Shown one piece after another: positions 35,030-62,654 of a DNA stretch of 64,000 bases. Source of the stretch: an uncultured Thermoleophilia bacterium (lineage in GTDB: Bacteria > Actinomycetota > Thermoleophilia > Gaiellales > Gaiellaceae); assembly GCA_963758345.1 (NCBI GenBank), contig CAVWVD010000009.1, forward strand, positions 3,077-67,076, written 5' to 3'. The notes under the pieces are model-generated. The model had not been told where the DNA came from. It ran no database searches and was given only the letters and a program-made list of their open reading frames with translations. The translations under genes and the position numbers were made by a program. The number at the start of each line of letters is the position of its first letter. The stretch's first letter is position 1.

Positions 35030-35829
35030 CGCACTTCCAGATTCCGCGTGTCGATGGTCGCCGCGACGCCGTGCCGTGTCCGGATCGTCAGCGTCGCCTC
35101 GTCCTGCGACAGCGTCATCTGCGAGTTCCAGTCCACCCGGGTCGCATCGGGCAGATCGATGCAGAAGGCAGCACGGTGATTCGCATCGAGTGCATGGACG
35201 AACGGAGCGCCCTGTATCCGCTGGTAGAGCGTGTACACCCAGCCGCCGGTCGCGGTCGCCGCGCGAGACACGGGCCAGCCGACCATCTTCTCGTCGGGCT
35301 CGCGCTTGTCGACGATCACGCGCCCCACGAGCCGGCTCGCCTTGAGGTCGTAGGCGCGCACGAGGTACTGGAAGAGGTCGCTTCGGTTCGCGTGCTGAAG
35401 CAGGTACAGCGTGCGCCCGTCGGGCGAGAGCGCGTCGTAGCCGAACTCGCCGTCGAGCGCGATCGTCCGTGCCGGACGCAGGCCTGCGGTCGAGAGGACG
35501 ACAAAGTGGCTCTGGCGTCGCAACAGCTGGTAGTTCGGTGGCTCGACGAGGACCAGCCGCTTGCCGTCGGGCGAGAGCCCGCCGCCTCCGCCGCCCATCG
35601 TGATGGCCGGGATGCCCCACTCGCCCTTGATCGTCCGCGACGCGACGAGTGTGTCGCCGCGCAACGCGCGCACCGTCGTCTTGCCGCTCGCACGGCCGGC
35701 CACGTAGCGAACATCGCCGTTCGAGACGCTCCGGGCAAGGCCCGGCCACGGGGCCGCTGCCACGGCGGTTCCGACGAGGACGAGAGCCGCGGCGACCGTC
35801 ACGCCGCGGAGCAGGGAGTGCCTGCGCAT
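35026..35829 (-). CDS. Secreted hypothetical protein (beta-rich)
   Basis: The last 267 codons of ORF 35026..36102, from ATG 35829 with GGAGG upstream. The signal peptide is MRRHSLLRGVTVAAALVLVGTAVAAA. I recognise no family. Confidence 0.6.
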   Translation of the reverse strand: MRRHSLLRGVTVAAALVLVGTAVAAAPWPGLARSVSNGDVRYVAGRASGKTTVRALRGDTLVASRTIKGEWGIPAITMGGGGGGLSPDGKRLVLVEPPNYQLLRRQSHFVVLSTAGLRPARTIALDGEFGYDALSPDGRTLYLLQHANRSDLFQYLVRAYDLKASRLVGRVIVDKREPDEKMVGWPVSRAATATGGWVYTLYQRIQGAPFVHALDANHRAAFCIDLPDATRVDWNSQMTLSQDEATLTIRTRHGVAATIDTRNLEVR

Positions 35830-35965
35830 GTCCACCTCCTTGGCTGCAGCCATTACACCGGACAGGAGCCAGGCGTTCCCGCGGGGAATAGCGTTCCCAC
35901 GGCGGTCGCTTATCCGTAGTGTTGACGGACGCACCAGACCCCGACCACGTCGGGAGGGAGGACAT

Positions 35966-36655
35966 ATGGGTTTGCAGCTAGGAAACACCGCACCCGACTT
36001 CGAGGCCGACACCACGGAAGGGCGCATCAAGTTCCACGACTGGATCGGCGACTCGTGGACGGTTCTCTTCTCGCACCCGAAGGACTTCACGCCCATCTGC
36101 ACGACCGAGCTCGGCTACATGGCGAAGATCAAGCCCGAGTTCGACCGGCGCGGCGTCAAGATCATCGGCCTCTCGGTCGACCCGATGGACCGGCACGAGA
36201 GCTGGGCCGACGACATCGAGGAGACCCAGGGCACCCGCCCGAACTACCCGATCATCGCCGACCCGACCTTCGAGATCTCGAAGGCCTACGGGATGCTCCC
36301 GGCGGAGACCTCGGGCGACCCGCTGGCCCGCACCCCCGTGGACAACCAGACCGTCCGCAACGTGTTCGTCATCGCCCCGGACCAGACGATCAAGCTGATC
36401 CTCGTCTACCCGATGACCACCGGGCGCAACTTCGACGAGGTGCTGCGCGTGATCGACTCGCTGAAGCTGACCGCCTCGCACAAGGTCTCGACGCCGGTGA
36501 ACTGGCAGCCGGGCGAGGACGTCATCATCGCCGGCTCCGTGACCGACGACGCGGCGAAGGAGCTCTGGCCCGAGGGCTGGGAGTCGCCGAAGCCGTACAT
36601 CCGGATCGTCCCGGACCCGGTCGGCGCGAAGCAGGCCACCGGCGTCTCGAGCTGA
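35966..36655 (+). CDS. 1-Cys peroxiredoxin (Prx6-type)
   Basis: From ATG 35966 (GGGAGGGAGG upstream): MGLQLGNTAPDFEADTTEGRIKFHDWIGDSWTVLFSHPKDFTPICTTELG. Confidence 0.92.
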   Translation: MGLQLGNTAPDFEADTTEGRIKFHDWIGDSWTVLFSHPKDFTPICTTELGYMAKIKPEFDRRGVKIIGLSVDPMDRHESWADDIEETQGTRPNYPIIADPTFEISKAYGMLPAETSGDPLARTPVDNQTVRNVFVIAPDQTIKLILVYPMTTGRNFDEVLRVIDSLKLTASHKVSTPVNWQPGEDVIIAGSVTDDAAKELWPEGWESPKPYIRIVPDPVGAKQATGVSS

Positions 36656-40904: not shown

Positions 40905-42614
40905 TCAGCCCACGACGTCGAAGCTGAACATCATCCCGCTCTCGTGATGCTCGGCGATGTGGCAGTGCGCCATCCAGCGGCCCTCGTTCGTGACGTCGAG
41001 GAGGATGTCCACCGTCTCGCCGGCCCGCAGGAGCACCGTGTCTTTCCAGACCAGGTTCTGCTCGGGCACGCCGTCCCGCGCGAGGATCACGAACCGCCCC
41101 GCGCCGTGGATGTGGAACGGATGGTGCATCGGGTGATCGCCCTCCATCGCGTTCACCAGGCGCAGCTTCACGCGGTCGCCGACCCGGAACTGCCAGGCGA
41201 TCTCGTGGTTGGCGGCTCCCGTGTCGCGGTCGACGATGCTCCAGCGCGTGTTCGCCGAGGTCGTCATCCGGTTGACGTCGACCATGTCGTCCTCCCACTC
41301 GATGCCGTCGCCGGCGTCGTGCGACTCGTGCTCGTGATGACCGTGATCGTGCTCGTGGTGCCCGCCCGACTGCTGCACGACCGACTCGGGCAGCAGCTTC
41401 ATGCCGCACTTCGGGCAGGTGTCCGGCGTCTCGCTGACCACGTCCGGGTGCATGGGGCACACGTACCGCTGCGGCGCCGCCGTCGCGAGCAGCTTCATCC
41501 CGCACTTGGGACAGCTGCCCTGCTCGTCGCTCACGACCTCGGGGTGCATCGGGCACGCGTAGACGACCGGGCCGTCCGGGACGCCCAGGTTCAGCTCGGC
41601 GACGAAGCCCAGCGTCCTGTCGGGAGCCGCGTCGACGTACGGAGCCAGCCGCTCCCGCTCGGCGGCCCATTCCGGGTTCTCGCGCAGCGTCTCGAAGTCG
41701 AGCGGCTCCACCTGCTCGGCTGAGACCTCCACGCGCGCCAGGTCGTACGTCCGCCCGGGCGTGCGATGCTCGAGCATCACGACGCCGGGTTCCGCGAAGA
41801 GCACGTCCACCACGGCCCGCTCCGACGGCGCGAGCACGACCGACTCGACGAGCTCGTCTCGCTCGCAGCGGCCGCTGTCGCCCCCGACGAGCTTCATGCG
41901 CGCGCCGGCAAGAGCGACGTTGAACACCCGCGTGTTGGCGGTGTTCGTGAGGAAGAAGCGCACGACCTCGCCGGCCCGCGCCGCGAGCGCCGGCTCGCTC
42001 TCGCCGCCGACGAGGAAGACATTCCCGAACCGCCCCATGGCGGCGTGCGTCGTCTCGTCCGGGCTGAACGGCGCGATCTTGCCGTCCTCGATCAGGACGT
42101 CGTCGAGCGTGAGCGTGACCTCGCGGTGCGCCGGCGGCCAGTAGCCTGCCTCGGCCGGCTCGACGACGATGTTCCCGTAGAGGCCGAGCTCCTGGCCGTA
42201 GTCCTCGCGGACGTGCGGGTGGTACCAGTAGACGCCCGGGTCGGGAAACGTCAGCTCGTACGCGAACGAGCCGCCGACGGGGATCGGTGCCTGCGTCTCG
42301 TGCGTGCCGTCGTAGCGGTTGTCGAGCCGCAGCCCGTGCCAGTGGACGGTGTTCGCGAGGTCGCCCTCGTTCGTCACGTTCACGGTGATGCGCGAGCCCT
42401 CGCGGACCCTCAGCGTCGGGCCGGGGATGGAGCCGTTGTACGCGAGCATCCGCAACGTGTCGTCGCCGATTCGCTTGGCGACCGGCTCGATCGTGAGGTC
42501 GACGCTGCCGCCCTCGGCGACGGTCACGTCGCCGGTCGCGCGCGCCGTGTCGAGGCCGGCCGTCTCGGTGGGGAAGGTCGCGGCCGCGTGGTGGTCGTGA
42601 TCGTGATGATCCAT
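40905..42614 (-). CDS. Multicopper oxidase with two inserted CPMHPxV...CPKCGMKL metal-binding modules and a His-rich tract
   Basis: From ATG 42614 (AAGGAG upstream). Copper sites are HWHG, HPFHIHG and HCHIAEHHESGMM. The insert at 41394..41561 is YACPMHPEVVSDEQGSCPKCGMKL followed by YVCPMHPDVVSETPDTCPKCGMKL. The His tract is GGHHEHDHGHHEHESHD. The N-terminus MDHHDHDHH has no signal peptide. Confidence 0.85.
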   Translation of the reverse strand: MDHHDHDHHAAATFPTETAGLDTARATGDVTVAEGGSVDLTIEPVAKRIGDDTLRMLAYNGSIPGPTLRVREGSRITVNVTNEGDLANTVHWHGLRLDNRYDGTHETQAPIPVGGSFAYELTFPDPGVYWYHPHVREDYGQELGLYGNIVVEPAEAGYWPPAHREVTLTLDDVLIEDGKIAPFSPDETTHAAMGRFGNVFLVGGESEPALAARAGEVVRFFLTNTANTRVFNVALAGARMKLVGGDSGRCERDELVESVVLAPSERAVVDVLFAEPGVVMLEHRTPGRTYDLARVEVSAEQVEPLDFETLRENPEWAAERERLAPYVDAAPDRTLGFVAELNLGVPDGPVVYACPMHPEVVSDEQGSCPKCGMKLLATAAPQRYVCPMHPDVVSETPDTCPKCGMKLLPESVVQQSGGHHEHDHGHHEHESHDAGDGIEWEDDMVDVNRMTTSANTRWSIVDRDTGAANHEIAWQFRVGDRVKLRLVNAMEGDHPMHHPFHIHGAGRFVILARDGVPEQNLVWKDTVLLRAGETVDILLDVTNEGRWMAHCHIAEHHESGMMFSFDVVG

Positions 42615-42619
42615 GTCAG

Positions 42620-43283
42620 GCTCCTTGGGGGACAGGCTCGCGCTTCGGAGCGCGAGCCGCAATCTGGTCTGCGATGAACTCGGCGTCGTCCTCGACGAAG
42701 CCGATGAGGGCCGACCGGTCGCCCAGATGACGGCGTCGACGGCCAGCTCGGAGCCGTCGGCGAAGGTGACGGTGCGCCCGCTTGCGGGGCCGGTCTCGAT
42801 CCGCTCGAAGCCGAGACGTTCCAGGGGTTCGACGTACGCTGCTTCCAGCCGGCGCTGGCCGGCGCCGATCACGGCGACGTCCAGGTGCTCGCCGCCCGTG
42901 TCATGGGTGCGTCGCATCAGGTTGTGACCCTTTCGATTGTCGCGGGTGGGCTGCAGTGCGCGCCCCGTGGCCGCTGCCTGCGCATGCCAGGGTAACGCGG
43001 GGTGACGTTCCGGGAGGTTTGCGTACGCTGCTTCCAGCAGCGCGGCGATTCAGCCGGTCCACAGGCCGATGTTGCGCCGGCCCTCGCTCACCGGACGCTG
43101 GATCGTGACGTCGGCGATCTGCAGCCGGCCGCCCGGCACGAGAACGCGGTGCAGCTTGGAGAACACCGCGTCCTTGTCGGGGACCATGATGAAGTCGCGC
43201 TCCGGCTCGGCGGAGACGGTCGAGTAGGTCTTCTTGATCTCGCTCTCGAGCAGCGCGACGCCGATGTCGGCGTCCACGGCCAT
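42620..43283 (-). pseudogene. Rearranged ArsM-like SAM-methyltransferase remnant(s) with an in-frame TGA at a conserved Cys position
   Basis: ATG 43283 (TGATG coupling to dsrE) reads MAVDADIGVALLESEIKKTYSTVSAEPERDF-IMVPDKDAVFSKLHRVLVPGGRLQIADV...GLWTG-TGA(43050..43052)-IAALLEAAYANL... The SAM-binding motif I is missing. A second partial copy reads ...VIGAGQRRLEAAYVEPLERLGFERIETG...AVDAVIWATGRP. A 35-nt direct repeat occurs at 42815..42849 and 43004..43038. Confidence 0.55.
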
Positions 43284-43657
43284 CAGTAGCTGAACACGGT
43301 CGCAGCACCGTCGCCGATCCAGTCCCAGAGCGGCGTCGCTCCGGCCAGGCGCGCGTTGGAGACCAGCGCGCTCTCGTCGAGCTTCCTCGAGTTGAAGCAG
43401 ATCGGGCAGACGAGCAGCTCGCCGCCGCCGTCTGCGTACTGCTGGAACAGCCGTGCAAGCGGCGGGCACCCCTCGCACGCGACCCCGTCGGCGTAGCCCG
43501 GGAGGCCGACTCGCACCGCTTCCTTGGTGAGGAACATCGCGACCTGCTTCCCCTTCTCGACGGCAGCGCCGCCGACGAGGAACGCGATCATCACGCGCTC
43601 GGTGTCCTCGAGCCCCGTTGCCAGGTTGATCACGACCTTGTCTGTGTTGACGGGCAT
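43283..43657 (-). CDS. DsrE/DsrF-like sulfur-relay family protein
   Basis: ORF 43283..43657 reads MPVNTDKVVINLATGLEDTERVMIAFLVGGAA...LLVCPICF. Confidence 0.75.
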   Translation of the reverse strand: MPVNTDKVVINLATGLEDTERVMIAFLVGGAAVEKGKQVAMFLTKEAVRVGLPGYADGVACEGCPPLARLFQQYADGGGELLVCPICFNSRKLDESALVSNARLAGATPLWDWIGDGAATVFSY

Positions 43658-43819
43658 TGCGCGCTCCTTTCGTCAGAGGACATCGCCGGCCGGGATCGGG
43701 TCTGCCGGCGCCGTGCGTACGCGCTGCAGCTGTGCGGGGAGGCGTGCGAGCCGCGCCTGCGGCCACTCCCAGGCGGCAGAACCTCGTACGCGTCTTGCAT
43801 CGCTCGACTCCTTCCTGGG

Positions 43820-47842: not shown

Positions 47843-48160
47843 CTAGATGCAGCCCTTGGGCTTGGGAATGCCGCCGATCCTGGCCGCGAGCTTCGCCGGC
47901 CCCTTCGGGAACAGCTGGTACAGCTCCTTGACGGGCACGCCCGACTCCTTGCCGAGCGCGCGGATCGAGGGCGCGCTGCCGCTCGCGAGGTAGCGCTCGC
48001 GCATGAAGCGGACGACAAGCCAGTGCCTGTCGGTCAGCTCGGGAATGCCGTTCTCCGCGGCGATGGCGTGCGCGATCTGCTCGTTCCACTGCCCGGGATC
48101 GGTGAGGAAGCCTTCCGCGTCGACGTCGACCGGCGCGTCGGCGATCAGGGTCATGGTCAC
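47843..48160 (-). CDS. TusE/DsrC/DsvC family sulfur-relay protein
   Basis: ORF 47843..48160 has EGFLTDPGQWNEQIA, LTDRHWLVVRFMRERY and the C-terminal PKPKGCI (terminal Cys). Confidence 0.85.
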   Translation of the reverse strand: MTMTLIADAPVDVDAEGFLTDPGQWNEQIAHAIAAENGIPELTDRHWLVVRFMRERYLASGSAPSIRALGKESGVPVKELYQLFPKGPAKLAARIGGIPKPKGCI

Positions 48161-48172
48161 TTCGGTCCTCCT

Positions 48173-49417
48173 TTACGCATGAACGGCGTCGAGCTTCTTG
48201 CCCGCCGTCGGCATCGTCGGGCCGATGCCGGGCAGCGGCCGCCCGGGGAGCAGGGCGTGCCAGTAGAGCCATTGGAACCCGAGCTTGCCCAGGTGGTTGA
48301 GCCGGGATTGCCGCAGGAGCGGCAGCCCGAAGACACCGGGATAGCGGCCGGGAAGCGGCTCGGTGTCGTAGTTGAAGTCGATGAGCAGCGCCTTGTGGAA
48401 CCCCGTCTCGACGAAGCAGTTGGCGTGCCCGTCGTACCCGGCGGCGAGCTCCTCGTCGCGGAAGTACCGTGCGACGTTCTCCGCCAGGATCTCGGCCTCG
48501 AAATGCGTGACCGAGCCGGCCTTGGAGGTCGGCAGGTCGGTCGCGTCGCCGAGTGCGAAGACGTTGGGGCTCGCGCCGGCCTGGAGCGTGTGCTTGTCGG
48601 TGGGGACGAAGCCCAACGCGTCGCCTAGGCCCGGCGAGCGCTCGATGTACGGCGCACCGCCGTGGAGCGGCACGGTGACGAGCAGGTCGAAGTCGAGCTC
48701 GCGCCCGTCGTAGGACACGAGCTTCCCGCCGGCCGCATCGACCTCGTCCGCATTGAACTCGGTGACGAGCTCGATCTCCTTCTCGGCGAGCAGCGAGCCG
48801 AGCTGCTCCGATGCGATCGGCTTGGTGAAGGCGCCGTCGAGCGGCGTCGAGTACACGAGCTCCGTGCGGCTGCGGACTCCGCGCTCGCGCAGGTACCAGT
48901 CGGCGAGGAAAGCCAGCTCGAGCGGCGCGACCGGGCACTTGATCGGCATGTCGACGATGTTCACGACGATGCGTCCCCCGTCGAATTCTTCGAACGCGCC
49001 GTGCAGCGCCGCGGCGCCTTCCGGCGTGTAGAACGTGAACGCTCGCTCGTTCCAGCCTGCGCCGGTCAGACCCTCGGTCTCCTGCGGCTGCAGGTGCGTC
49101 CCCGTCGCGACGACGAGGACGTCGTACGGCAGCGTCACGCCGCCTGCGAGGAGGACCTCGTTGCGGTGAAGTGCGACCGATTCGACCTCCCGCTCGTGGA
49201 AGGTCACGCCGCGCCGGAACTGCCGGCGGCGTGGACGGACGATCTCCTCGATGCCGGCGAGGCCGAACGGGACGAACACAAGTCCCGGCTGGTAGACGTG
49301 CCGGTCGTCGCGATCGACGACGTGGATGTCAGCGTCGCCGTCGAGCTCGCGGTCCAGACGGTTGGCGACCATCGTCCCGCCGGTTCCGCCGCCCAGGATC
49401 ACGACCTGTTTCTTCAG
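48173..49417 (-). CDS. Sulfide:quinone oxidoreductase-type FAD-dependent oxidoreductase; probable CTG start
   Basis: The track ORF starts at GTG 49402 (MILGGGTGG). The same frame 15 nt upstream reads CTG-AAG-AAA-CAG-GTC (KKQVVILGGGTGG). GGAGG (49424..49428) lies 6 nt before the CTG, and the CTG overlaps the OsmC stop (CTGA). Body motifs are IKCPVAPLE and ALGDATD. Confidence 0.8.
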   Translation of the reverse strand: MKKQVVILGGGTGGTMVANRLDRELDGDADIHVVDRDDRHVYQPGLVFVPFGLAGIEEIVRPRRRQFRRGVTFHEREVESVALHRNEVLLAGGVTLPYDVLVVATGTHLQPQETEGLTGAGWNERAFTFYTPEGAAALHGAFEEFDGGRIVVNIVDMPIKCPVAPLELAFLADWYLRERGVRSRTELVYSTPLDGAFTKPIASEQLGSLLAEKEIELVTEFNADEVDAAGGKLVSYDGRELDFDLLVTVPLHGGAPYIERSPGLGDALGFVPTDKHTLQAGASPNVFALGDATDLPTSKAGSVTHFEAEILAENVARYFRDEELAAGYDGHANCFVETGFHKALLIDFNYDTEPLPGRYPGVFGLPLLRQSRLNHLGKLGFQWLYWHALLPGRPLPGIGPTMPTAGKKLDAVHA

Positions 49418-49857
49418 GCTGCACCTCCTGCGGGGGCCAGCGCGTCATCAGGCCGGCCGCCGGTCGCCTCGATCGTCTCGGAGAACGAGAAGCCGGCGTC
49501 GATCGCGCGCCGGAGGGGGCAGGCGCGGGCGACCTGCTCGAGCCGCGCCAGCTGCTCCTCGCTCAGCGCGCCGTCCAGCGAGATCGTCACGTCGAAGGCG
49601 CGTGGCGTCGCCTTGTGGTCGTAGTCGACGGCGACCTCGACGTTGCCGATCTCCCACTTTTTCGTGCGGGCGTACATCACGAGCGTGGTCGCCGTGCACG
49701 CGGCGAGCGCCGCGGGGAAGAGCTCGTGCGGCGCCGGGCCGCTGTCGTCGCCGCCCAGATGCTCCGGCTCGTCCGTGATCAGGCGGTGCTTACCCGCGAT
49801 GACGACCTGCTGGCGCAGCGTCCCTGGGATCGACCGGGCTGTGGCGGTGAGAGCCAT
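49414..49857 (-). CDS. OsmC family peroxiredoxin
   Basis: ORF 49414..49857 has GPAPHELFPAALAACTATTL and ARACPL, the two OsmC cysteines. Confidence 0.85.
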   Translation of the reverse strand: MALTATARSIPGTLRQQVVIAGKHRLITDEPEHLGGDDSGPAPHELFPAALAACTATTLVMYARTKKWEIGNVEVAVDYDHKATPRAFDVTISLDGALSEEQLARLEQVARACPLRRAIDAGFSFSETIEATGGRPDDALAPAGGAA

Positions 49858-51841: not shown

Positions 51842-53333
51842 TCTGATATGGAGGCGTTGAAGTCAAGGGTCCAGGCCGCGTCGCCCGGTCGTTGATCGGG
51901 GCGGTTTGCTGTTCGGGTGGGCGTCGGGCGCTGCGACGACGGTCGCTTCGCTGTCAGTCTGATCATGCGGGGGTTGGGTACCCCATGGCCCTGCTTGCGT
52001 GGCCGGCGTGCGCTGTCTAGGAGCGGGCGTGGCTGTTTCGGGTTGCCCATAGATCAATCGCGCGTGCCGGCAGCGTGTGGCCCGGCGCCCGCCCGAGCAG
52101 GCGGCTGTTGTCGGGGGTCAGTCGGCCACGGCGGCTGCCCAGCAGAAGCAGGCGAGTTCGCGGGCGACGGCCACGGTGGTGACGTTGCCCGGCTTTCCGC
52201 GTGCGCGTAGGCGTTGGTAGAGGCGGTGCAGCCGCGCTTGCGCGCGCAGCGCGATCTGGATGACATGGTCGGGCTGGCCGGCGCGTCGCTCGGCGAGCGC
52301 GACGCCGCCGCCGGGTCGGGGCAGGTAGTGCCAGGCCGACTCGACCAGCAGGCGGCGTGCGTAGCCGGAGCCGGTCTTGGTGATCGGCCCCTGGCGGCGG
52401 CTTTCGCCCGACTGGTCGAGCGACGGGACGAGGCCGAGCCAGGCCGCGAGTTGGGCCGGCCGCTGGAAGCGCGTCCAGTCGCCGATCTCGAGGCAGAGCA
52501 CGAAGGCGGTCAGGGTGTCGATGCCGCGGAAGCAGCGCAGCCGCGCGACCGTCGGCCACCAGTCGCCCTCGTGGGCGAGCCGGGAGAGTCGCTCGTCGAG
52601 TGCTTGCTTGCGTGCCACGAGGCCGTCGACGGCGGCGAGCGAGTCGGCGTAGGCGAGCTCGGTCGCGGGCTGGTCAAAGCGCTGGGTGCCCAGCCAGCCA
52701 TGGTGTCGCTTTGTCCAGGCGTTTCCGTCGTAGACGCGCCCGTGCAGGAGCAGCAGCTTCGAGACGCGGTGCCGGCAGCGCATGAGATCGCCGCGCACCT
52801 GCTCGCGTGCGCGGGCGAGGTGGCGTGCGGCCTCGAACGGGGGCGGCGGGACGGCCACCGCCGTCAGCTGGCCGGCGAGCAGCAGCCGAGCCAACAGCTC
52901 GGCGTCCTTGCGGTCGCTCTTGATCCGGTCGCCGGGTGCCCGCGGCGTCTTTGACGGGGCGACGACGTCGATCCGCAAGCCCGCCGTCTCGGCAGTCCGG
53001 TAGAGGGCGAAGCCGGTCGGGCCGGCCTCGTAGCAGCCCTTGAGCGGCTGCGGCAACGTCTGCAGCCAATCGATCACCTCGTCGCTGCCGCCGCCGAAGC
53101 GAGCACGACGCAGCTCACCACTTGAGACATCGATCGCGGCGGCGTGGGTCGAGCGGGCGTGGACATCCAGGCCCACGTACGTCATCGTTGCGGTCACGGC
53201 CGGACCCTCCTTCCGTTACATGGGGTCAGCCGGAGCCGGTCTCCGGCCAGACAAACCCCCGATCTGTAACCGGAGGATCCGGCCTCTTCCTCGCTCGCGG
53301 CTACTCAGCCGCCATAGGGTCTAGCGTTGACCT
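51842..53333 (-). mobile_element. IS110-family insertion sequence; boundaries approximate (the whole 1.49-kb intergenic segment is given)
   Basis: A single DEDD-type transposase gene is flanked by about 275 nt (3' side, 51842..52117) and about 135 nt (5' side, 53198..53333) of non-coding sequence. There are no obvious terminal inverted repeats, as is typical for IS110. Confidence 0.75.
52118..53197 (-). CDS. IS110 family transposase (DEDD recombinase)
   Basis: ORF 52118..53197 has YVGLDVHARSTHAA, CYEAGPTGF, KSDRKDAELLARL, FRGIDTLTAFVLCLEIGDWTRF and LDQSGESRRQGPITKTGSGYARRLLVESAW. Confidence 0.92.
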   Translation of the reverse strand: MTATMTYVGLDVHARSTHAAAIDVSSGELRRARFGGGSDEVIDWLQTLPQPLKGCYEAGPTGFALYRTAETAGLRIDVVAPSKTPRAPGDRIKSDRKDAELLARLLLAGQLTAVAVPPPPFEAARHLARAREQVRGDLMRCRHRVSKLLLLHGRVYDGNAWTKRHHGWLGTQRFDQPATELAYADSLAAVDGLVARKQALDERLSRLAHEGDWWPTVARLRCFRGIDTLTAFVLCLEIGDWTRFQRPAQLAAWLGLVPSLDQSGESRRQGPITKTGSGYARRLLVESAWHYLPRPGGGVALAERRAGQPDHVIQIALRAQARLHRLYQRLRARGKPGNVTTVAVARELACFCWAAAVAD

Positions 53334-58114: not shown

Positions 58115-58717
58115 TCAGGCGGCGAGCTGCGCGAACGCCCGGCGGAAGACGTCGAGCGGCTGGGCGCCGAGCACGAGCAGGCGGCTGTCGAGGACGAACG
58201 CCGGGATCGCGTGGATCCCGGCCGACGTCGCCTGGCGCGTCGAGCCCTCCACGGTGTCGAGATACGCGGACGGGGTCGCGATGACGTGCTCGACGTCCCC
58301 CGCTCCGAGCCCGGCCTCGGCGGCCAGGCGGCGCAGCTCGTCCGGGTCGCCGATGTTCACCGCCTCCGCCCAGTAGGCGTCCATGAGCCGGTCGTGGAAC
58401 GGCCCGTGCAGGCCGCGCTCCCGCGCCAGCTCGGTCATCCGCAGCGCGAGCCGCGTGTTCGGCACGACGTCGGACCGGTTGTACTCGAGCCCGGCGCCGG
58501 CGAAGCGGTCGTGCAGCGGGTCGCGGCCCTCGATGCCGTACCGGCGGTGCAGCTCCGCGAGCGGGATGCCCTCCGGCGGGTACTCGGGGTGCAGGTCGAA
58601 CGGGAGCCAGGCCACGTCGGCGTCGAACTCGCGCCGCGCCTGCTCGGCCGTCACCTGGCCGAGCCGGCAGAACGGTCAGATGTAGTCGCTCCAGATGACG
58701 ATCGAGTGCTCGGCCAC
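58115..58717 (-). CDS. DsbA/FrnE-like thiol oxidoreductase with an in-frame TGA at the first redox-motif Cys; candidate selenoprotein, alternatively a nonsense pseudogene
   Basis: GTG 58717 reads VAEHSIVIWSDYI-TGA(58676..58678)-PFCRLGQVTAEQARREFDADVAWLPFDLHPEYPPEG... and continues as track ORF 58115..58654. This matches the family pattern ...IWSD..CP.C..G. Confidence 0.6.
58637..58669 (-). promoter_or_regulatory. SECIS-like hairpin downstream of the in-frame UGA
   Basis: The mRNA sequence is UGCCGGCUCGGCC-AGGUGAC-GGCCGAGCAGGCG. It has 13 stem positions with one G.A mismatch, and a 7-nt loop containing GGU that starts 19 nt after the UGA. Confidence 0.45.
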
Positions 58718-58759
58718 AGTGCATCATGACCACCTCGCAACCAGCGCGGAGGTGGGATC

Positions 58760-59732
58760 ATGAACGCGTTCGAGAGTCTCTATCTCGGCACGGAGGGCGT
58801 CGTCCCATCGCTCGACGGCGCCACGACGTGGCTCAACTCCGAGCCGCTGACGCCAGAGGCGCTGCGCGGCCGCGTCGTCGCCTTCGACTTCTGCACGTAC
58901 ACCTGCATCAACTGGCTCCGCACGCTCCCGTACGTGCGCGCATGGAGCGAGAAGTACGGCTCGCAGGGCTTCGTGGTCGTCGGCGTCCACACGCCCGAGT
59001 TCCCGTTCGAGCACGAGCTCGACTACATCCGCCCGCAGCTCGCACGCCGCGGCATCGCCTACCCGGTCGCGGTCGACAACGACTACGGCGTCTGGCAGGC
59101 GTTCGCCAACCAGTACTGGCCGGCCCTCTACCTCGCCGACGCCGACGGCGAGATTCGCTACCACCACTTCGGCGAGGGCGCGTACGAGGACTCCGAGCGG
59201 GCGATCCAGCGCCTGCTCGGCGTCGAGGACGAGCTGGTGGACGTCGAGCCGAGCGGCGACGAGGTGCCCGCCGTCTGGGAGGACGTGCGGTCGCCGGAGA
59301 CGTACCTCGGCTACGAGCGAGCCGGCAACCTCGCGTCCCCGGGCGGCGCGACGCTCGAGAGCCGGGCGTACGCGCTGCCGCCGCGGCTCGAGCTCAACCA
59401 GTGGGCCCTGTCCGGCCGGTGGACGCTCGCAGCAGGGCCACGTCTCCCTCGACGAGGCCGGCGGCCGGCTCGCGTTCCGTTTCCACGCGCGTGACGTGAA
59501 CCTGGTCATGGGCTCGGGCGAGCCCGGACGGGACGTCGCCTTCCGTGTCACGATCGACGGCGAGCAGCCCGGCGCGTCGCACGGCGTGGACGCCGACGAG
59601 GGCGGCAACGGGACCGTGCGCGAGCCGCGCATGTACCAGCTCGTCCGTTGGTCGGGCGCGGTCGAGGAGCGCACGTTCGAGATCGAGCTCGCCGACGCGA
59701 GGCCGGCCGCGTACTGCTTCACGTTCGGCTAA
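58760..59732 (+). CDS. Thioredoxin-fold (DipZ C-terminal-like) protein, one frameshift near 59430
   Basis: ORF 58760..59494 has FCTYTCINWLRTLPYVRAW, VVGVHTPEFPFE and NQYWPALYLAD. After ...GRWTLA the frame fails and ORF 59496..59732 continues as QQGHVSLDEAGGRLAFRFHARDVNLVMG...AAYCFTFG. Confidence 0.75.
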
Positions 59733-60187: not shown

Positions 60188-60685
60188 ATGCCGCCTGGAA
60201 GCGCGGGCCTGACTAAGTCCGTTCGCGCACACCCGCGCAACACGGTGCCGTGGCTGCTGGCGGTGCCGGCGGTCCTGGCGCTGCTGCTCTTCCACTTCCT
60301 GCCGATCGGCGTCGGCGCCTACTTCGCCTTCACCGACTGGGACGGGCTCTCCCATGCGAACTGGGTCGGCCTGCAGAACTTCCGCGGCATCGCCCACGAC
60401 GCGACGGCGCGCCACGCGCTCTCGCACACGCTCGAGCTCGCGTTCTGCTTCGTCGTCCTCGAGGGGGAGCGGCTGCGCGGCCGTGCCCCCTCGGTCGAGC
60501 TGCTCGGGGCGGAGCAGCTCGTCCACGTCGAGCTGCCAGTGACGCTCGCGGAACGGCAGGACGGGCTCGTGACCGCACGCTTCGACGCGCAGACCCGGGT
60601 GGCTCCCGGCGACCTCGTCGAGCTGTCCGTCAACACCCCGCGCCTGCGCTTCTTCGACCTGGCCACCGGTCGCGCCATCTCTTGA
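60188..60685 (+). pseudogene. Chimeric remnant: N-terminus of a sugar ABC permease fused in frame to the C-terminus of a MalK/UgpC-like ATPase
   Basis: Residues 1..~90 (PWLLAVPAVLALLLFHFLPIGVGAYFAFTDWDGLSHANWVGLQNF) are MalF/UgpA-like. The rest (VELLGAEQLVHVELP...LVTARFDAQTRVAPGDLVELSVNTPRLRFFDLATGRAI) is the regulatory domain of the ATPase. Confidence 0.6.
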
Positions 60686-61452
60686 TCCCGCTCGGCGACC
60701 TGGGCGGCCTCGAGTTCCGGCCGGCAACGTTTGCCGCGCTCGCGGTTGCCGTCGTCGCGGCGTACTTCCTCAAGGGCTTCAGCGGGTTCGGCCCGGCGCT
60801 GATCTTCATGCCGGTCGCGTCCGTCGTCTACGGGCCGCGACTGGCGCTCGCGACCTCTGCCGTCGTCGACATCGTGGTCGGGGCCGGGTTCCTGCTCGCG
60901 CTCCACTACAGCAGCGAGGAGAAGCGGATGGTCGCGCGCATGACCGCCTACGTCGCGGCGGGCGCGGTTGCCGGCGCGAGCCTCGCCGGCGTGCTGCCGA
61001 CGGATGTCCTGCTCGCGCTGATCGCGATCGTCGTGTTCGTCCTCGGCGTGCGCCTATGGCTGGCGGCGGGGCGGCAGGTGGCCGCCGGCCTCGTCGCCCG
61101 CCGCTCGACCGCGATCGCGTGCATCGCGGGCGGCGTCTCCGGCGGCCTGACCGGGATCAGCGGGCCCTTCGTCGTGGCGGGCGCCGCGCAGCTGGACAAG
61201 GGCGCGTTCCGGCGGATCCTCGTCGCCGTGTTCCTGGTGGAGAGCATCGTGAAGACGGTCGTCTACGGCCTGACCGGGATTCCGTTCGGCGAGGTCCTGG
61301 CGCTGTCGCTGGCGATCGCGCCGTTCATCGCGGTCGGGCTCGCGCTGGGCGCCGTGGCCCACTTCCACGTGAGCCAGCGGCGGTTCTTCCAGGTGACGGG
61401 CGCGGTGCTGGTCGCGCTGGCGCTCGAGACCGTGGTCGCGCTCCAACGCTGA
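60682..61452 (+). CDS. Sulfite exporter TauE/SafE family membrane protein
   Basis: Frame of ORF 60250..61452 from TTG 60682 (TTGA overlap). It has FLKGFSGFGPALIFMP and GGVSGGLTGISGP, and is multi-TM. Confidence 0.75.
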   Translation: MIPLGDLGGLEFRPATFAALAVAVVAAYFLKGFSGFGPALIFMPVASVVYGPRLALATSAVVDIVVGAGFLLALHYSSEEKRMVARMTAYVAAGAVAGASLAGVLPTDVLLALIAIVVFVLGVRLWLAAGRQVAAGLVARRSTAIACIAGGVSGGLTGISGPFVVAGAAQLDKGAFRRILVAVFLVESIVKTVVYGLTGIPFGEVLALSLAIAPFIAVGLALGAVAHFHVSQRRFFQVTGAVLVALALETVVALQR

Positions 61453-61457
61453 GCTCG

Positions 61458-62591
61458 TCAGCCCGCGAACCAGCGGGCGCGGCGGCTCGAGCCGAAGTGC
61501 TGCTTCTCGGCGACCAGGGCGGCCGACGGCTCTTGCAGCGTGCCGGTCGGCTTCGCCCCTGACAGGAAGTCGATGTCGACGCGCCCGACGCGGCCGGCGC
61601 CGAACTCGATGTAGCAGGAACCGAGACCGTCGTAGCCTGCCGGCCGCGGGCCTCCCTGCAGCCGCGCGATCAGCGTCTCGGCGACGACGCGCGCCTCCCG
61701 CTCGGAGAACACGCCCGCCTTCGGGACGCCGACGGTCGCGACGTCGCCGACCGCGTAGACGTCCGGGAACCGCGTCGCGAGCGTCCGCGAGTCGACGGGG
61801 ATGTAGCCGTTCTCGGCCATGCCGCTCTCGAGCACGACGCGCGGGGCGCGGTGCTTCGGCACGCCGAGGAAAAGGTCGTAGGGCACCTCCTCGCCGCCTT
61901 CGAGCACGGCGACGCTGCGACCTGGGTCGAGCGAGGCGACGCGCCGGCCGGGGACGAACTCGATGCCGCGTTCGGCGAACGCCTCGAGGAGTGCCGCCGA
62001 GGTGTCGGGCGACGGTGGAATGGGCGTGCCGAACGGCATGACGAGCGAGATCTCGCAGTCAGAGCGGATGCCGCGCTCGTTCAGGTAGTCGTGCAGAAGG
62101 AGCGCGGCCTCGCTCGGCGCCGGCGGGCACTTGAACGGCGCCCCGCAGACGCCGACGACCGCGCGGCCGCGGGTGAAGGCCGGCAGCACCTCCCGGACAC
62201 GCTCGGCGCCGGCGACCGAGTAGAACTCCGTCCCGGCCTCGGCAAGCCCGGGCGTCGCGTCGAAGTCGTAGTCCGCGCCGAGCGCGACGACCAGGATGTC
62301 GGCGTCGTGCACGCCGCGGTCCGTGGTCACGCGCCGCGCGTCCGGGTCGATCGCGGTCACCGTCTCCCGCAGGAAGCGCACCCCTGGCTTGGCGAAGTCT
62401 GCGTAGTTGAGCCGCACCGCGGCGGGCGCAGCCTTGCCGAACATCACGTCGAGCTTCGAGTAGCCGAAGACGAACGCGTCGCCCGCCTCGATCAGCGTGA
62501 CGCCGGCGTCCTCGCCGAGCGCCTCGGACAGCGTGGTCGCGAGCTCGAGGCCGCCGAAGCCGGCACCGAGGATGAGGATGCGTGCCTCCAC
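61458..62591 (-). CDS. NAD(P)/FAD-dependent oxidoreductase, SQR-like
   Basis: ORF 61458..62591 has RILILGAGFGGLE, FKCPPAPSE and AVGDVA. Confidence 0.8.
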   Translation of the reverse strand: MEARILILGAGFGGLELATTLSEALGEDAGVTLIEAGDAFVFGYSKLDVMFGKAAPAAVRLNYADFAKPGVRFLRETVTAIDPDARRVTTDRGVHDADILVVALGADYDFDATPGLAEAGTEFYSVAGAERVREVLPAFTRGRAVVGVCGAPFKCPPAPSEAALLLHDYLNERGIRSDCEISLVMPFGTPIPPSPDTSAALLEAFAERGIEFVPGRRVASLDPGRSVAVLEGGEEVPYDLFLGVPKHRAPRVVLESGMAENGYIPVDSRTLATRFPDVYAVGDVATVGVPKAGVFSEREARVVAETLIARLQGGPRPAGYDGLGSCYIEFGAGRVGRVDIDFLSGAKPTGTLQEPSAALVAEKQHFGSSRRARWFAG

Positions 62592-62654
62592 GGGCCGACC
62601 CTACGCGCAGGAAGCCGGTCCCACCGGCCGCCCGTCGAGGCCTAGACTCGTGCC

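Follow-up and report, generated by a model that had tools for sequence, protein, structure and literature searches.

Selenoproteins of the DsbA-like family, with selenocysteine (Sec, U) in a UxxC motif, were defined in 2005 from Sargasso Sea sequences (COG2761, PF01323; Zhang, Fomenko and Gladyshev, PMC1088965), were reported in 2006 from Anaeromyxobacter, Desulfovibrio and Desulfotomaculum (Zhang et al., PMC1794560), and in 2016 were counted as 45 proteins in 41 organisms (Peng et al., PMC5029168). A 2026 review lists the family as 'DsbA-like protein form 1' (PMC13188914). Here we describe a candidate gene of this family in a stretch of 64,000 nt (the window) from an uncultured Thermoleophilia bacterium of the Gaiellaceae (assembly GCA_963758345.1, contig CAVWVD010000009.1, positions 3,077 to 67,076), on whose minus strand an in-frame TGA takes the place of the first redox Cys of a DsbA/FrnE-like oxidoreductase and is directly followed by a hairpin. 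On the evidence reported below, this UGA is very probably decoded as Sec, through SelB and a selenocysteine insertion sequence (SECIS), in a cytoplasmic oxidoreductase of the FrnE/DsbA family carrying the motif U14-P-F-C17. A first-pass annotation of the window had proposed just such a replacement of Cys by Sec, with a SECIS-like hairpin, and had stated that DsbA-like selenoproteins were already predicted in comparative surveys; the statement is correct (PMC1088965, PMC5029168, PMC13188914), and the proposal is supported by the codon, the hairpin and the upstream conservation found in relatives.

Compared by published description, the locus resembles form 1 in its PF01323 domain, in a UxxC motif whose first redox residue is Sec and in the widespread Cys homologs, as well as in the in-frame UGA with a stem-loop directly after it and a small apical loop containing G. 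The hosts are different, since the earlier members come from marine metagenomes, Deltaproteobacteria and Clostridia, whereas the clade of the window belongs to the Thermoleophilia/Gaiellales, soil Actinomycetota. At the level of sequence the window gene has every feature that defines form 1, of which it is a predicted member. FrnE of Deinococcus radiodurans (5cnw and others) and SCO1869 of Streptomyces coelicolor (3gl5) have the cytoplasmic DsbA fold without signal peptide that is predicted for the window protein, but they carry Cys at the first redox position and count 239-260 residues, against U, 200 residues and a single Cys in the window protein. FrnE carries an extra C-terminal Cys pair, and the tail that bears it is absent from the window protein. 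The periplasmic DsbA of E. coli, a disulfide-forming oxidase, shares with the predicted product a CPxC-type motif and a thioredoxin fold into which a helical domain is inserted; by contrast, it is exported, whereas the window protein has no signal peptide.

The coordinates of the gene are reported in Table 1. The minus-strand frame that opens at GTG 58717 reads VAEHSIVIWSDYI, then TGA (58678-58676), then PFCRLGQVTAEQ..., and remains open to the terminal TGA (58117-58115), while another in-frame TGA stop lies two codons 5' of the GTG start (58724-58726). The open reading frame (ORF) listing of the window gives only a piece of 179 aa of this gene, from GTG 58654. When Cys is put in place of the stop, residues 6-195 of the product match positions 2-190 of the 191 positions of the Pfam profile DSBA (PF01323; E 9.5e-26, 91.2 bits, cut-off 25.6). 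Since the match begins at residue 6, the 13 codons ahead of the TGA are part of the domain, namely its first beta-strand, rather than a leader. Among solved structures, the best matches are SCO1869 (3gl5, E 2e-22) and, from Deinococcus, FrnE (5cnw, E 4e-21), both nearly full length, and it is by these matches that the fold and the motif of the predicted product are placed: IWSD-IA-CPWC of SCO1869/FrnE aligns with IWSDYI-[TGA]-PFC, the TGA falls on the first Cys of CPWC, and U-P-F-C (residues 14-17) stands at the N-terminus of helix 1. The TGC of Cys17, the second position of the redox motif, is the only Cys codon of the gene. The frame, the placing of the TGA on the first Cys of CPxC and the hairpin (a stem of 13 positions with one G.A mismatch and the loop AGGUGAC) had all been read by the first-pass annotation, and they were recovered, respectively, in the sequence, in the alignment to SCO1869 and FrnE, and by folding.

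There is no room for a signal peptide in the product, whose start lies 13 codons before the redox residue with an in-frame stop just upstream, and for the same reason a cytoplasmic, FrnE-like role appears more likely than periplasmic disulfide formation. In fact, the N-terminal signal for export that marks the periplasmic DsbA oxidases was not found in the product, which has no N-terminal extension, whereas its best matches in the PDB, SCO1869 and FrnE, together with the missing export signal, assign it by prediction to the cytoplasmic FrnE subfamily (COG2761-type).

In the mRNA, counting the U of the UGA as 1, nucleotides U10-C22 pair with G30-G42 and form eight upper pairs, the mismatch G14.A38 and four lower pairs, one of them U.G, with the 7-nt loop at positions 23-29. 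The bacterial SECIS model requires a loop of 3-9 nt, an upper stem of 4-16 bp, a spacing of 16-37 nt and an energy <= -7.5 kcal/mol (PMC13188914), and also a G at one of the first two loop nucleotides, with G or U after it (PMC13188914, Fig. 2). The window hairpin falls within all these published constraints, with its 7-nt loop, an upper stem of 8 bp, G at loop position 2, 19 nt between UGA and loop, and -15.8 kcal/mol. The stem-loop stands immediately 3' of the UGA as in the SECIS of E. coli fdhF/fdnG and in the consensus bacterial model (bSECISearch; PMC13188914); no sequence similarity connects it with the fdhF/fdnG elements, and it is a putative SECIS by its predicted structure. When the synonymous codons of the same peptide were resampled 300 times, the hairpin had a z of -2.67, and only 4 of the 300 sequences were as stable. 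As for the background, some hairpin passing the bacterial SECIS model follows 16.7% of the 1104 TGA triplets of the window, but an upper stem at -15.8 kcal/mol is matched by only 1.8% of them. Taken alone, the window hairpin is moderately unusual in a genome of 71% GC, and it is the comparison with relatives that settles the matter.

To this comparison contributed a protein search, which gave 2986 homologs at E <= 1e-10, the best 120 of which (68-91% identity) were examined, and a scan of one genome per GTDB species, which gave 80 loci, nearly all in metagenome-assembled genomes (MAGs) of Thermoleophilia, Gaiellales or Gaiellaceae. TGA is present at exactly this codon in 58 of the 80 loci, all in species-level genomes of Thermoleophilia/Gaiellales whose proteins are 50-78% identical to that of the window, and the 58 genomes share the motif WSDY[ILT]-TGA-P[FWY]-C; the best relative (78%) is a Thermoleophilia MAG, L001. 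The metagenome contigs L084-L086 add further TGA forms. Twenty more distant loci, including Miltoncostaeaceae, Corynebacterium and Trueperella, have TGC or TGT at this codon. The sets compared below consist of 60 TGA forms (59 loci and the window) and of these 20 Cys forms. Every one of the 60 TGA forms has the second Cys of the motif, as TGC or TGT.

Neighbour-joining places the TGA forms in a single large clade whose sister group is formed by the Cys forms of Miltoncostaeaceae; a few Cys forms are nested inside the TGA clade, next to the branch of the window itself. Among the nested forms without TGA, L083 (TGC; 1033-1086) has kept the hairpin as a 'fossil SECIS', whereas L082 (999-1052) and L024 (10040-10093), both TGT, have lost it. 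The hairpin is intact also in L081 (654-707), a singleton contig whose GGA (Gly) at the codon reflects an error or else a very recent mutation. Hairpins kept in L083 and L081 and lost in L082 and L024 are the pattern expected of recent as opposed to older loss of Sec.

Conservation extends to the region ahead of the TGA. W-S-D-Y is invariant in the 60 TGA forms, even if its Ser is encoded by AGC (36), TCG (19) or TCC (5); since the residues persist through these switches of codon family, the 13 upstream codons are under selection at the protein level. Beyond the TGA, P-x-C also shows no or almost no change in protein sequence, with variation among synonymous codons. Moreover, 46 of the 60 forms have a start codon (ATG, GTG or TTG) at a distance of exactly 13 codons ahead of the TGA, often right after an in-frame stop. 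The terminal stop is itself TGA in 43 of the 60 genes, that of the window included; UGA is thus an ordinary terminator in these organisms, and an internal UGA would need a local signal rather than a change of the code.

Such a signal could be the hairpin, which we found by folding in every TGA form, beginning about +10 to +16 from the U. Its distance from the TGA, about 19-23 nt downstream, is kept among the TGA forms, and the Cys forms compared with them do not have it. Over the 48 nt that follow the codon, the minimum free energy averages -23.8 kcal/mol in the TGA forms compared to -14.8 in the Cys forms, and the mean z against synonymous resampling is -1.44 in the former (negative in 57 of 60) and +0.10 in the latter. 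A strict implementation of the published bacterial SECIS (bSECIS) model is passed by 42 of the 60 TGA forms and by none of the 20 Cys forms. The arms themselves differ from clade to clade and yet remain complementary, as in the pairs GGCUCGGCC/GGCCGAGC, GUCGGCCAG/CUGGCCGA, GCGUGGCG/CGCCACCU and GGUGGCCC/GGGCCGC. When arms were swapped among 56 sequences, the native 5'/3' pairs had a mean of -21.5 kcal/mol compared to -18.9 for the inter-sequence chimeras, none of 2000 permutations reached the native mean stability, and exchange of the 3' half between divergent pairs cost 3.2 kcal/mol on average. This co-variation of the arms is support and not proof, because the kinship of the sequences inflates the permutation test.

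The same comparison explains how these proteins appear in the databases. Among the 120 best homologs, 117 extend over no more than about 90% of the query and are on record as 'DsbA family' proteins of 176-207 residues without the active site; those that were read back begin V/MTAEQ/E, just past the position of the TGA. Of the three full-length records, P0073 and P0103 show Cys at the redox position and P0047 shows Gly. In two truncated ones, P0067 and P0120, the DNA 5' of the called start was found to contain WSDYI-TGA-PFC plus the same hairpin. The records are short because gene callers treat the UGA as a stop and the GTG inside the hairpin loop as a new start; in the codon-register alignment of the relatives (A1) this GTG is not kept in other clades, where CCG, GGG and similar triplets are found.

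The frame, the homology, the conservation of the codon and the presence and co-variation of the hairpin are direct observations. A UGA on the catalytic Cys, conservation on both sides of it, orthologs with TGA and a stem-loop of SECIS consensus type together make the gene, as judged by sequence, a candidate bacterial selenoprotein gene. Sec as the inserted residue, the dependence on SelB, the redox chemistry and the partner are what we infer, the decoding steps by analogy with known bacterial selenoprotein genes and the chemistry from CxxC thioredoxin-fold enzymes. Translation would start at GTG 58717, and the hairpin at 58637-58669, directly after the UGA (58676-58678), would act as a bacterial SECIS element, whose apical part would be bound by SelB.GTP.Sec-tRNA(Sec). 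Sec would thereby reach the UGA when this codon stands in the A site of the ribosome, and translation would then go on to the ordinary terminator TGA at 58115. In the enzyme, the selenolate of residue 14, the N-terminal nucleophile, would attack a disulfide or a sulfenic acid of the substrate, and Cys17, the only Cys of the protein, would resolve the mixed intermediate to give an intramolecular selenenylsulfide, to be reduced by a cellular reductant. A candidate client is a 1-Cys peroxiredoxin, because in one subclade its gene stands directly downstream.

Several results weigh against this interpretation. Against dinucleotide shuffles of a 76-nt stretch, the window hairpin has a z of only -0.97, a weak value because the genome is 71% GC. 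The view of the first-pass annotation that a chance origin is unlikely therefore has a mixed outcome if the hairpin is taken alone, as the shuffles and the synonymous resampling differ, and finds support in the TGA and hairpin of the relatives. Eighteen of the 60 TGA forms fail the strict bSECIS test, owing to mismatches inside the stem or because neither of the first two loop nucleotides is G. No single consensus structure emerges from A1, for which RNAalifold gives only 5 pairs; on the same alignment the window structure is 60.6% paired, with covariation not above that of shuffles or slid controls. Likewise, a covariance model built on A1 (R1) found all the homologous sites and aligned them without indels and with the stems out of register, so that R1 gives no structural evidence. 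The consensus fails because the stems slip by 1-2 nt between clades, which is why the register-free tests described above (synonymous resampling, bSECIS model, arm swap) were used. Six of the 60 TGA-form genes lack a clean frame of 170-260 codons (L023, L057, L065, L070, L074, L076): the frame ends early in L057 (96 codons), L070 (129) and L076 (76), and in L057, L070, L074 and L076 the length of the match is not a multiple of 3, which points to frameshifts. Unrelated disruptions among relatives, which the first-pass annotation had named as the sign of a decaying pseudogene, are nevertheless not seen as a pattern, with these six unclean frames in 60 and at least three of them ending early. Finally, neither the 64-kb window nor some 1.3 Mb of flanking DNA from relatives yielded tRNA-Sec, selA, selB or selD, which is uninformative, since linkage of these genes is not required.

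Five of the six loci with an unclean frame are Microflora Danica (MFD) assemblies, and either assembly indels or real decay may be the cause.

Some of these data could be read differently. If the TGA were a true stop, the locus would give a 13-residue peptide and/or the 179-aa protein from GTG 58654, without strand beta-1 and redox motif, as a decaying or neo-functionalised gene would. This is indeed how gene callers treat 117 of the 120 best homologs; the 179-aa ORF opens with GTG, and the six unclean frames would fit. However, the 13 upstream codons are in frame, with an ATG/GTG start at a fixed distance and WSDY preserved through synonymous Ser switches in 58 species, and in the Pfam match they correspond to the beginning of the DSBA profile; a pseudogene would gather varied lesions instead of one identical TGA, and the GTG of the loop, which is not conserved in other clades, needs no role as a start. 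We consider a true stop very unlikely. An error turning TGC or TGT into TGA in the window would require a single-base difference, but the same TGA occurs in 58 independent species-level assemblies from many studies, plus more metagenome contigs, and the probability of this explanation is practically negligible.

The UGA might instead be read by other means. Downstream structures promote stop-codon read-through in some systems, and near-cognate decoding stimulated by the hairpin, with Trp, Arg, Cys or Gly inserted at the UGA and no dedicated Sec machinery, could also be suggested by the intact hairpin of L081 beside its Gly codon. But the residue is the catalytic nucleophile of a CxxC enzyme whose homologs have only Cys there, so that Trp, Arg or Gly would inactivate it; L081 is a singleton contig, the geometry of the hairpin fits the bacterial SECIS model, and a second TGA gene, from a classical family of selenoproteins, is found on related contigs. 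There is accordingly very little probability left for simple read-through. TGA, hairpin and Cys in the homologs are unable to tell Sec from Cys, and some bacteria do have a tRNA-Cys(UCA) with a SelB* partner, for which decoding of UGA as Cys was obtained in a test system (PMC5389517). The hairpin would thus still be a recoding signal if the UGA were recoded to Cys, by a SelC*-type tRNA-Cys(UCA) with a SelB paralog or by Sec machinery loaded with sulfur under selenium scarcity. However, selC* has been reported only in anaerobic Firmicutes, Thermodesulfobacteria, Nitrospirae and Proteobacteria, not in Actinobacteria, and the isolate genomes that carry it always have the full Sec apparatus too (PMC5389517). 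Moreover, a plain TGC would yield an identical product without any cost, and reversions of this kind are seen in the clade (L082, L083); the long-term retention of TGA in 58 species, with TGC freely available, argues that the decoded residue differs from Cys, and recoding to Cys is in our opinion highly improbable. The broader idea that Gaiellales decode a conserved UGA by a non-canonical route, inserting Cys or a mixture of Sec and Cys via a SelB-like factor, or using a divergent tRNA-Sec system, is very unlikely. A milder version is much more probable, in which a whole abundant soil order would run a selenium-dependent thiol system of FrnE type, operonic with 1-Cys peroxiredoxin in one subclade and entirely hidden by present annotation. 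We therefore retain the decoding of the UGA as Sec, dependent on SelB and SECIS, as by far the most credible interpretation.

As regards the Sec machinery, no tRNA-Sec was detected in the window by ARAGORN and Rfam, nor in the loci of the relatives by ARAGORN, both of which would miss a tRNA-Sec of the 8/4 type. tRNA-Sec of this type has been reported in Actinobacteria. In tblastn searches with approximate E. coli SelD, SelA and SelB sequences as probes, SelD and SelA had no match and SelB only weak matches to its GTPase domain. In the same class, SelD, SelA and SelB are listed for Solirubrobacter, Patulibacter and Conexibacter woesei Iso977N (Peng et al., 2016, Table S1, PMC5029168). A scan of the window for in-frame TGA with coding-like GC at third codon positions on both sides found no other convincing interrupted gene.

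On nine related Gaiellaceae contigs, on the other hand, a second gene with an in-frame TGA was found about 9.4 kb downstream of the DsbA-like gene (Table 1). Its product is a member of the iodothyronine-deiodinase family (PF00837, E 1.1e-30), and the gene reads FGSYT-[TGA]-PPF, followed by a hairpin, with the TGA standing where deiodinases carry their catalytic Sec. Among bacterial selenoproteins, those of deiodinase type form an established family (PMC1088965), and this gene, as a second selenoprotein candidate, lends support to a Sec trait in the lineage.

Table 1. Coordinates of the candidate selenoprotein gene, of its hairpin and of associated features (window positions, unless a locus is named)
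Feature	Position	Strand	Basis or remark
Full candidate selenoprotein gene, DSBA/FrnE-like	58115..58717	-	200 codons including the Sec codon; translation and Pfam
GTG start	58715..58717	-	13 codons ahead of the TGA; sequence
In-frame TGA, proposed Sec codon, residue 14 (U of U-P-F-C)	58676..58678	-	sequence and homologs
TGC, resolving Cys of UxxC	58667..58669	-	first three bases of the hairpin 5' arm; translation
Terminal stop, TGA	58115..58117	-	sequence
179-aa ORF with GTG start 58654	58115..58654	-	ORF listing
SECIS-like hairpin	58637..58669	-	5' arm 58657-58669, 3' arm 58637-58649, G.A mismatch 58665/58641; RNA folding
Apical loop AGGUGAC	58650..58656	-	holds GTG 58652-58654, start of the gene callers' 179-aa protein
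TGA of deiodinase-like gene	L010:19406, L011:19584, L015:19418, L016:10066, L019:19583, L023:19386, L025:19468, L057:19375, L070:19472	+	
Loose sulfur-handling cluster	43286-43672, 47846-48172, 48176-49444, 49417-49857, 60217-61449, 61461-62600	-, -, -, -, +, -	
1-Cys peroxiredoxin gene downstream	L036, L038, L043, L044, L046, L047, L051, L052, L055, L076	same as DsbA-like gene	

The neighbourhood of the gene offers one possible partner. In the ten loci of one subclade listed in Table 1, the DsbA-like gene is immediately followed by a 1-Cys peroxiredoxin gene of the same orientation, which starts 590-660 nt after the TGA; this adjacency suggests a redox pair with the putative Sec-DsbA. In the window, the homolog of this peroxiredoxin is 22 kb off (35708-36652, +). 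The divergent thioredoxin-fold gene and the sulfur-handling neighbours pointed out by the first-pass annotation are both real by domain matches: the former (58760-59494, +) matches Thioredoxin_10 and Redoxin, and the latter form a loose cluster with a DsrE-like protein, a DsrC/TusE-like protein (ending ...PKPKGCI), two SQR-like flavoproteins, an OsmC-like protein and a TauE/SafE exporter. Across the 60 loci, no neighbour family is present in more than 18, and the immediate neighbours of the window gene are not syntenic with those of its relatives, in which the sulfur-handling cluster shows no synteny with the DsbA-like gene either. Since the neighbourhood is not conserved, we drew no functional conclusion from the sulfur and thiol genes.

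An IS110-family transposase (DEDD_Tnp_IS110 + Transposase_20; 52121-53215, -) lies about 5 kb from the gene and may account for a local gene order unlike that of the relatives. The window also encodes a multicopper oxidase (40908-43049, -) with two heavy-metal-binding (HMBD) repeats and His-rich stretches.

A full-text search of the literature found no paper that treats selenocysteine or selenoproteins in Gaiella, Gaiellales or Thermoleophilia beyond a passing mention. The family itself was already on record in 2005, and the novelty lies in the host clade, in the near-universal presence there and in the systematic mis-annotation. The understanding of how selenoproteins work is unchanged by these results. 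The practical message for annotators is clear, since current records hide the active site of these proteins. From the evolutionary point of view, one Sec clade with nested reversions to Cys, one of them with a 'fossil' hairpin, is observed together with hairpin arms that co-vary inside a coding sequence. A Sec-utilising trait would thus be given to Gaiellales and related Thermoleophilia, common soil Actinomycetota, with at least two families, one DsbA/FrnE-like and one deiodinase-like.

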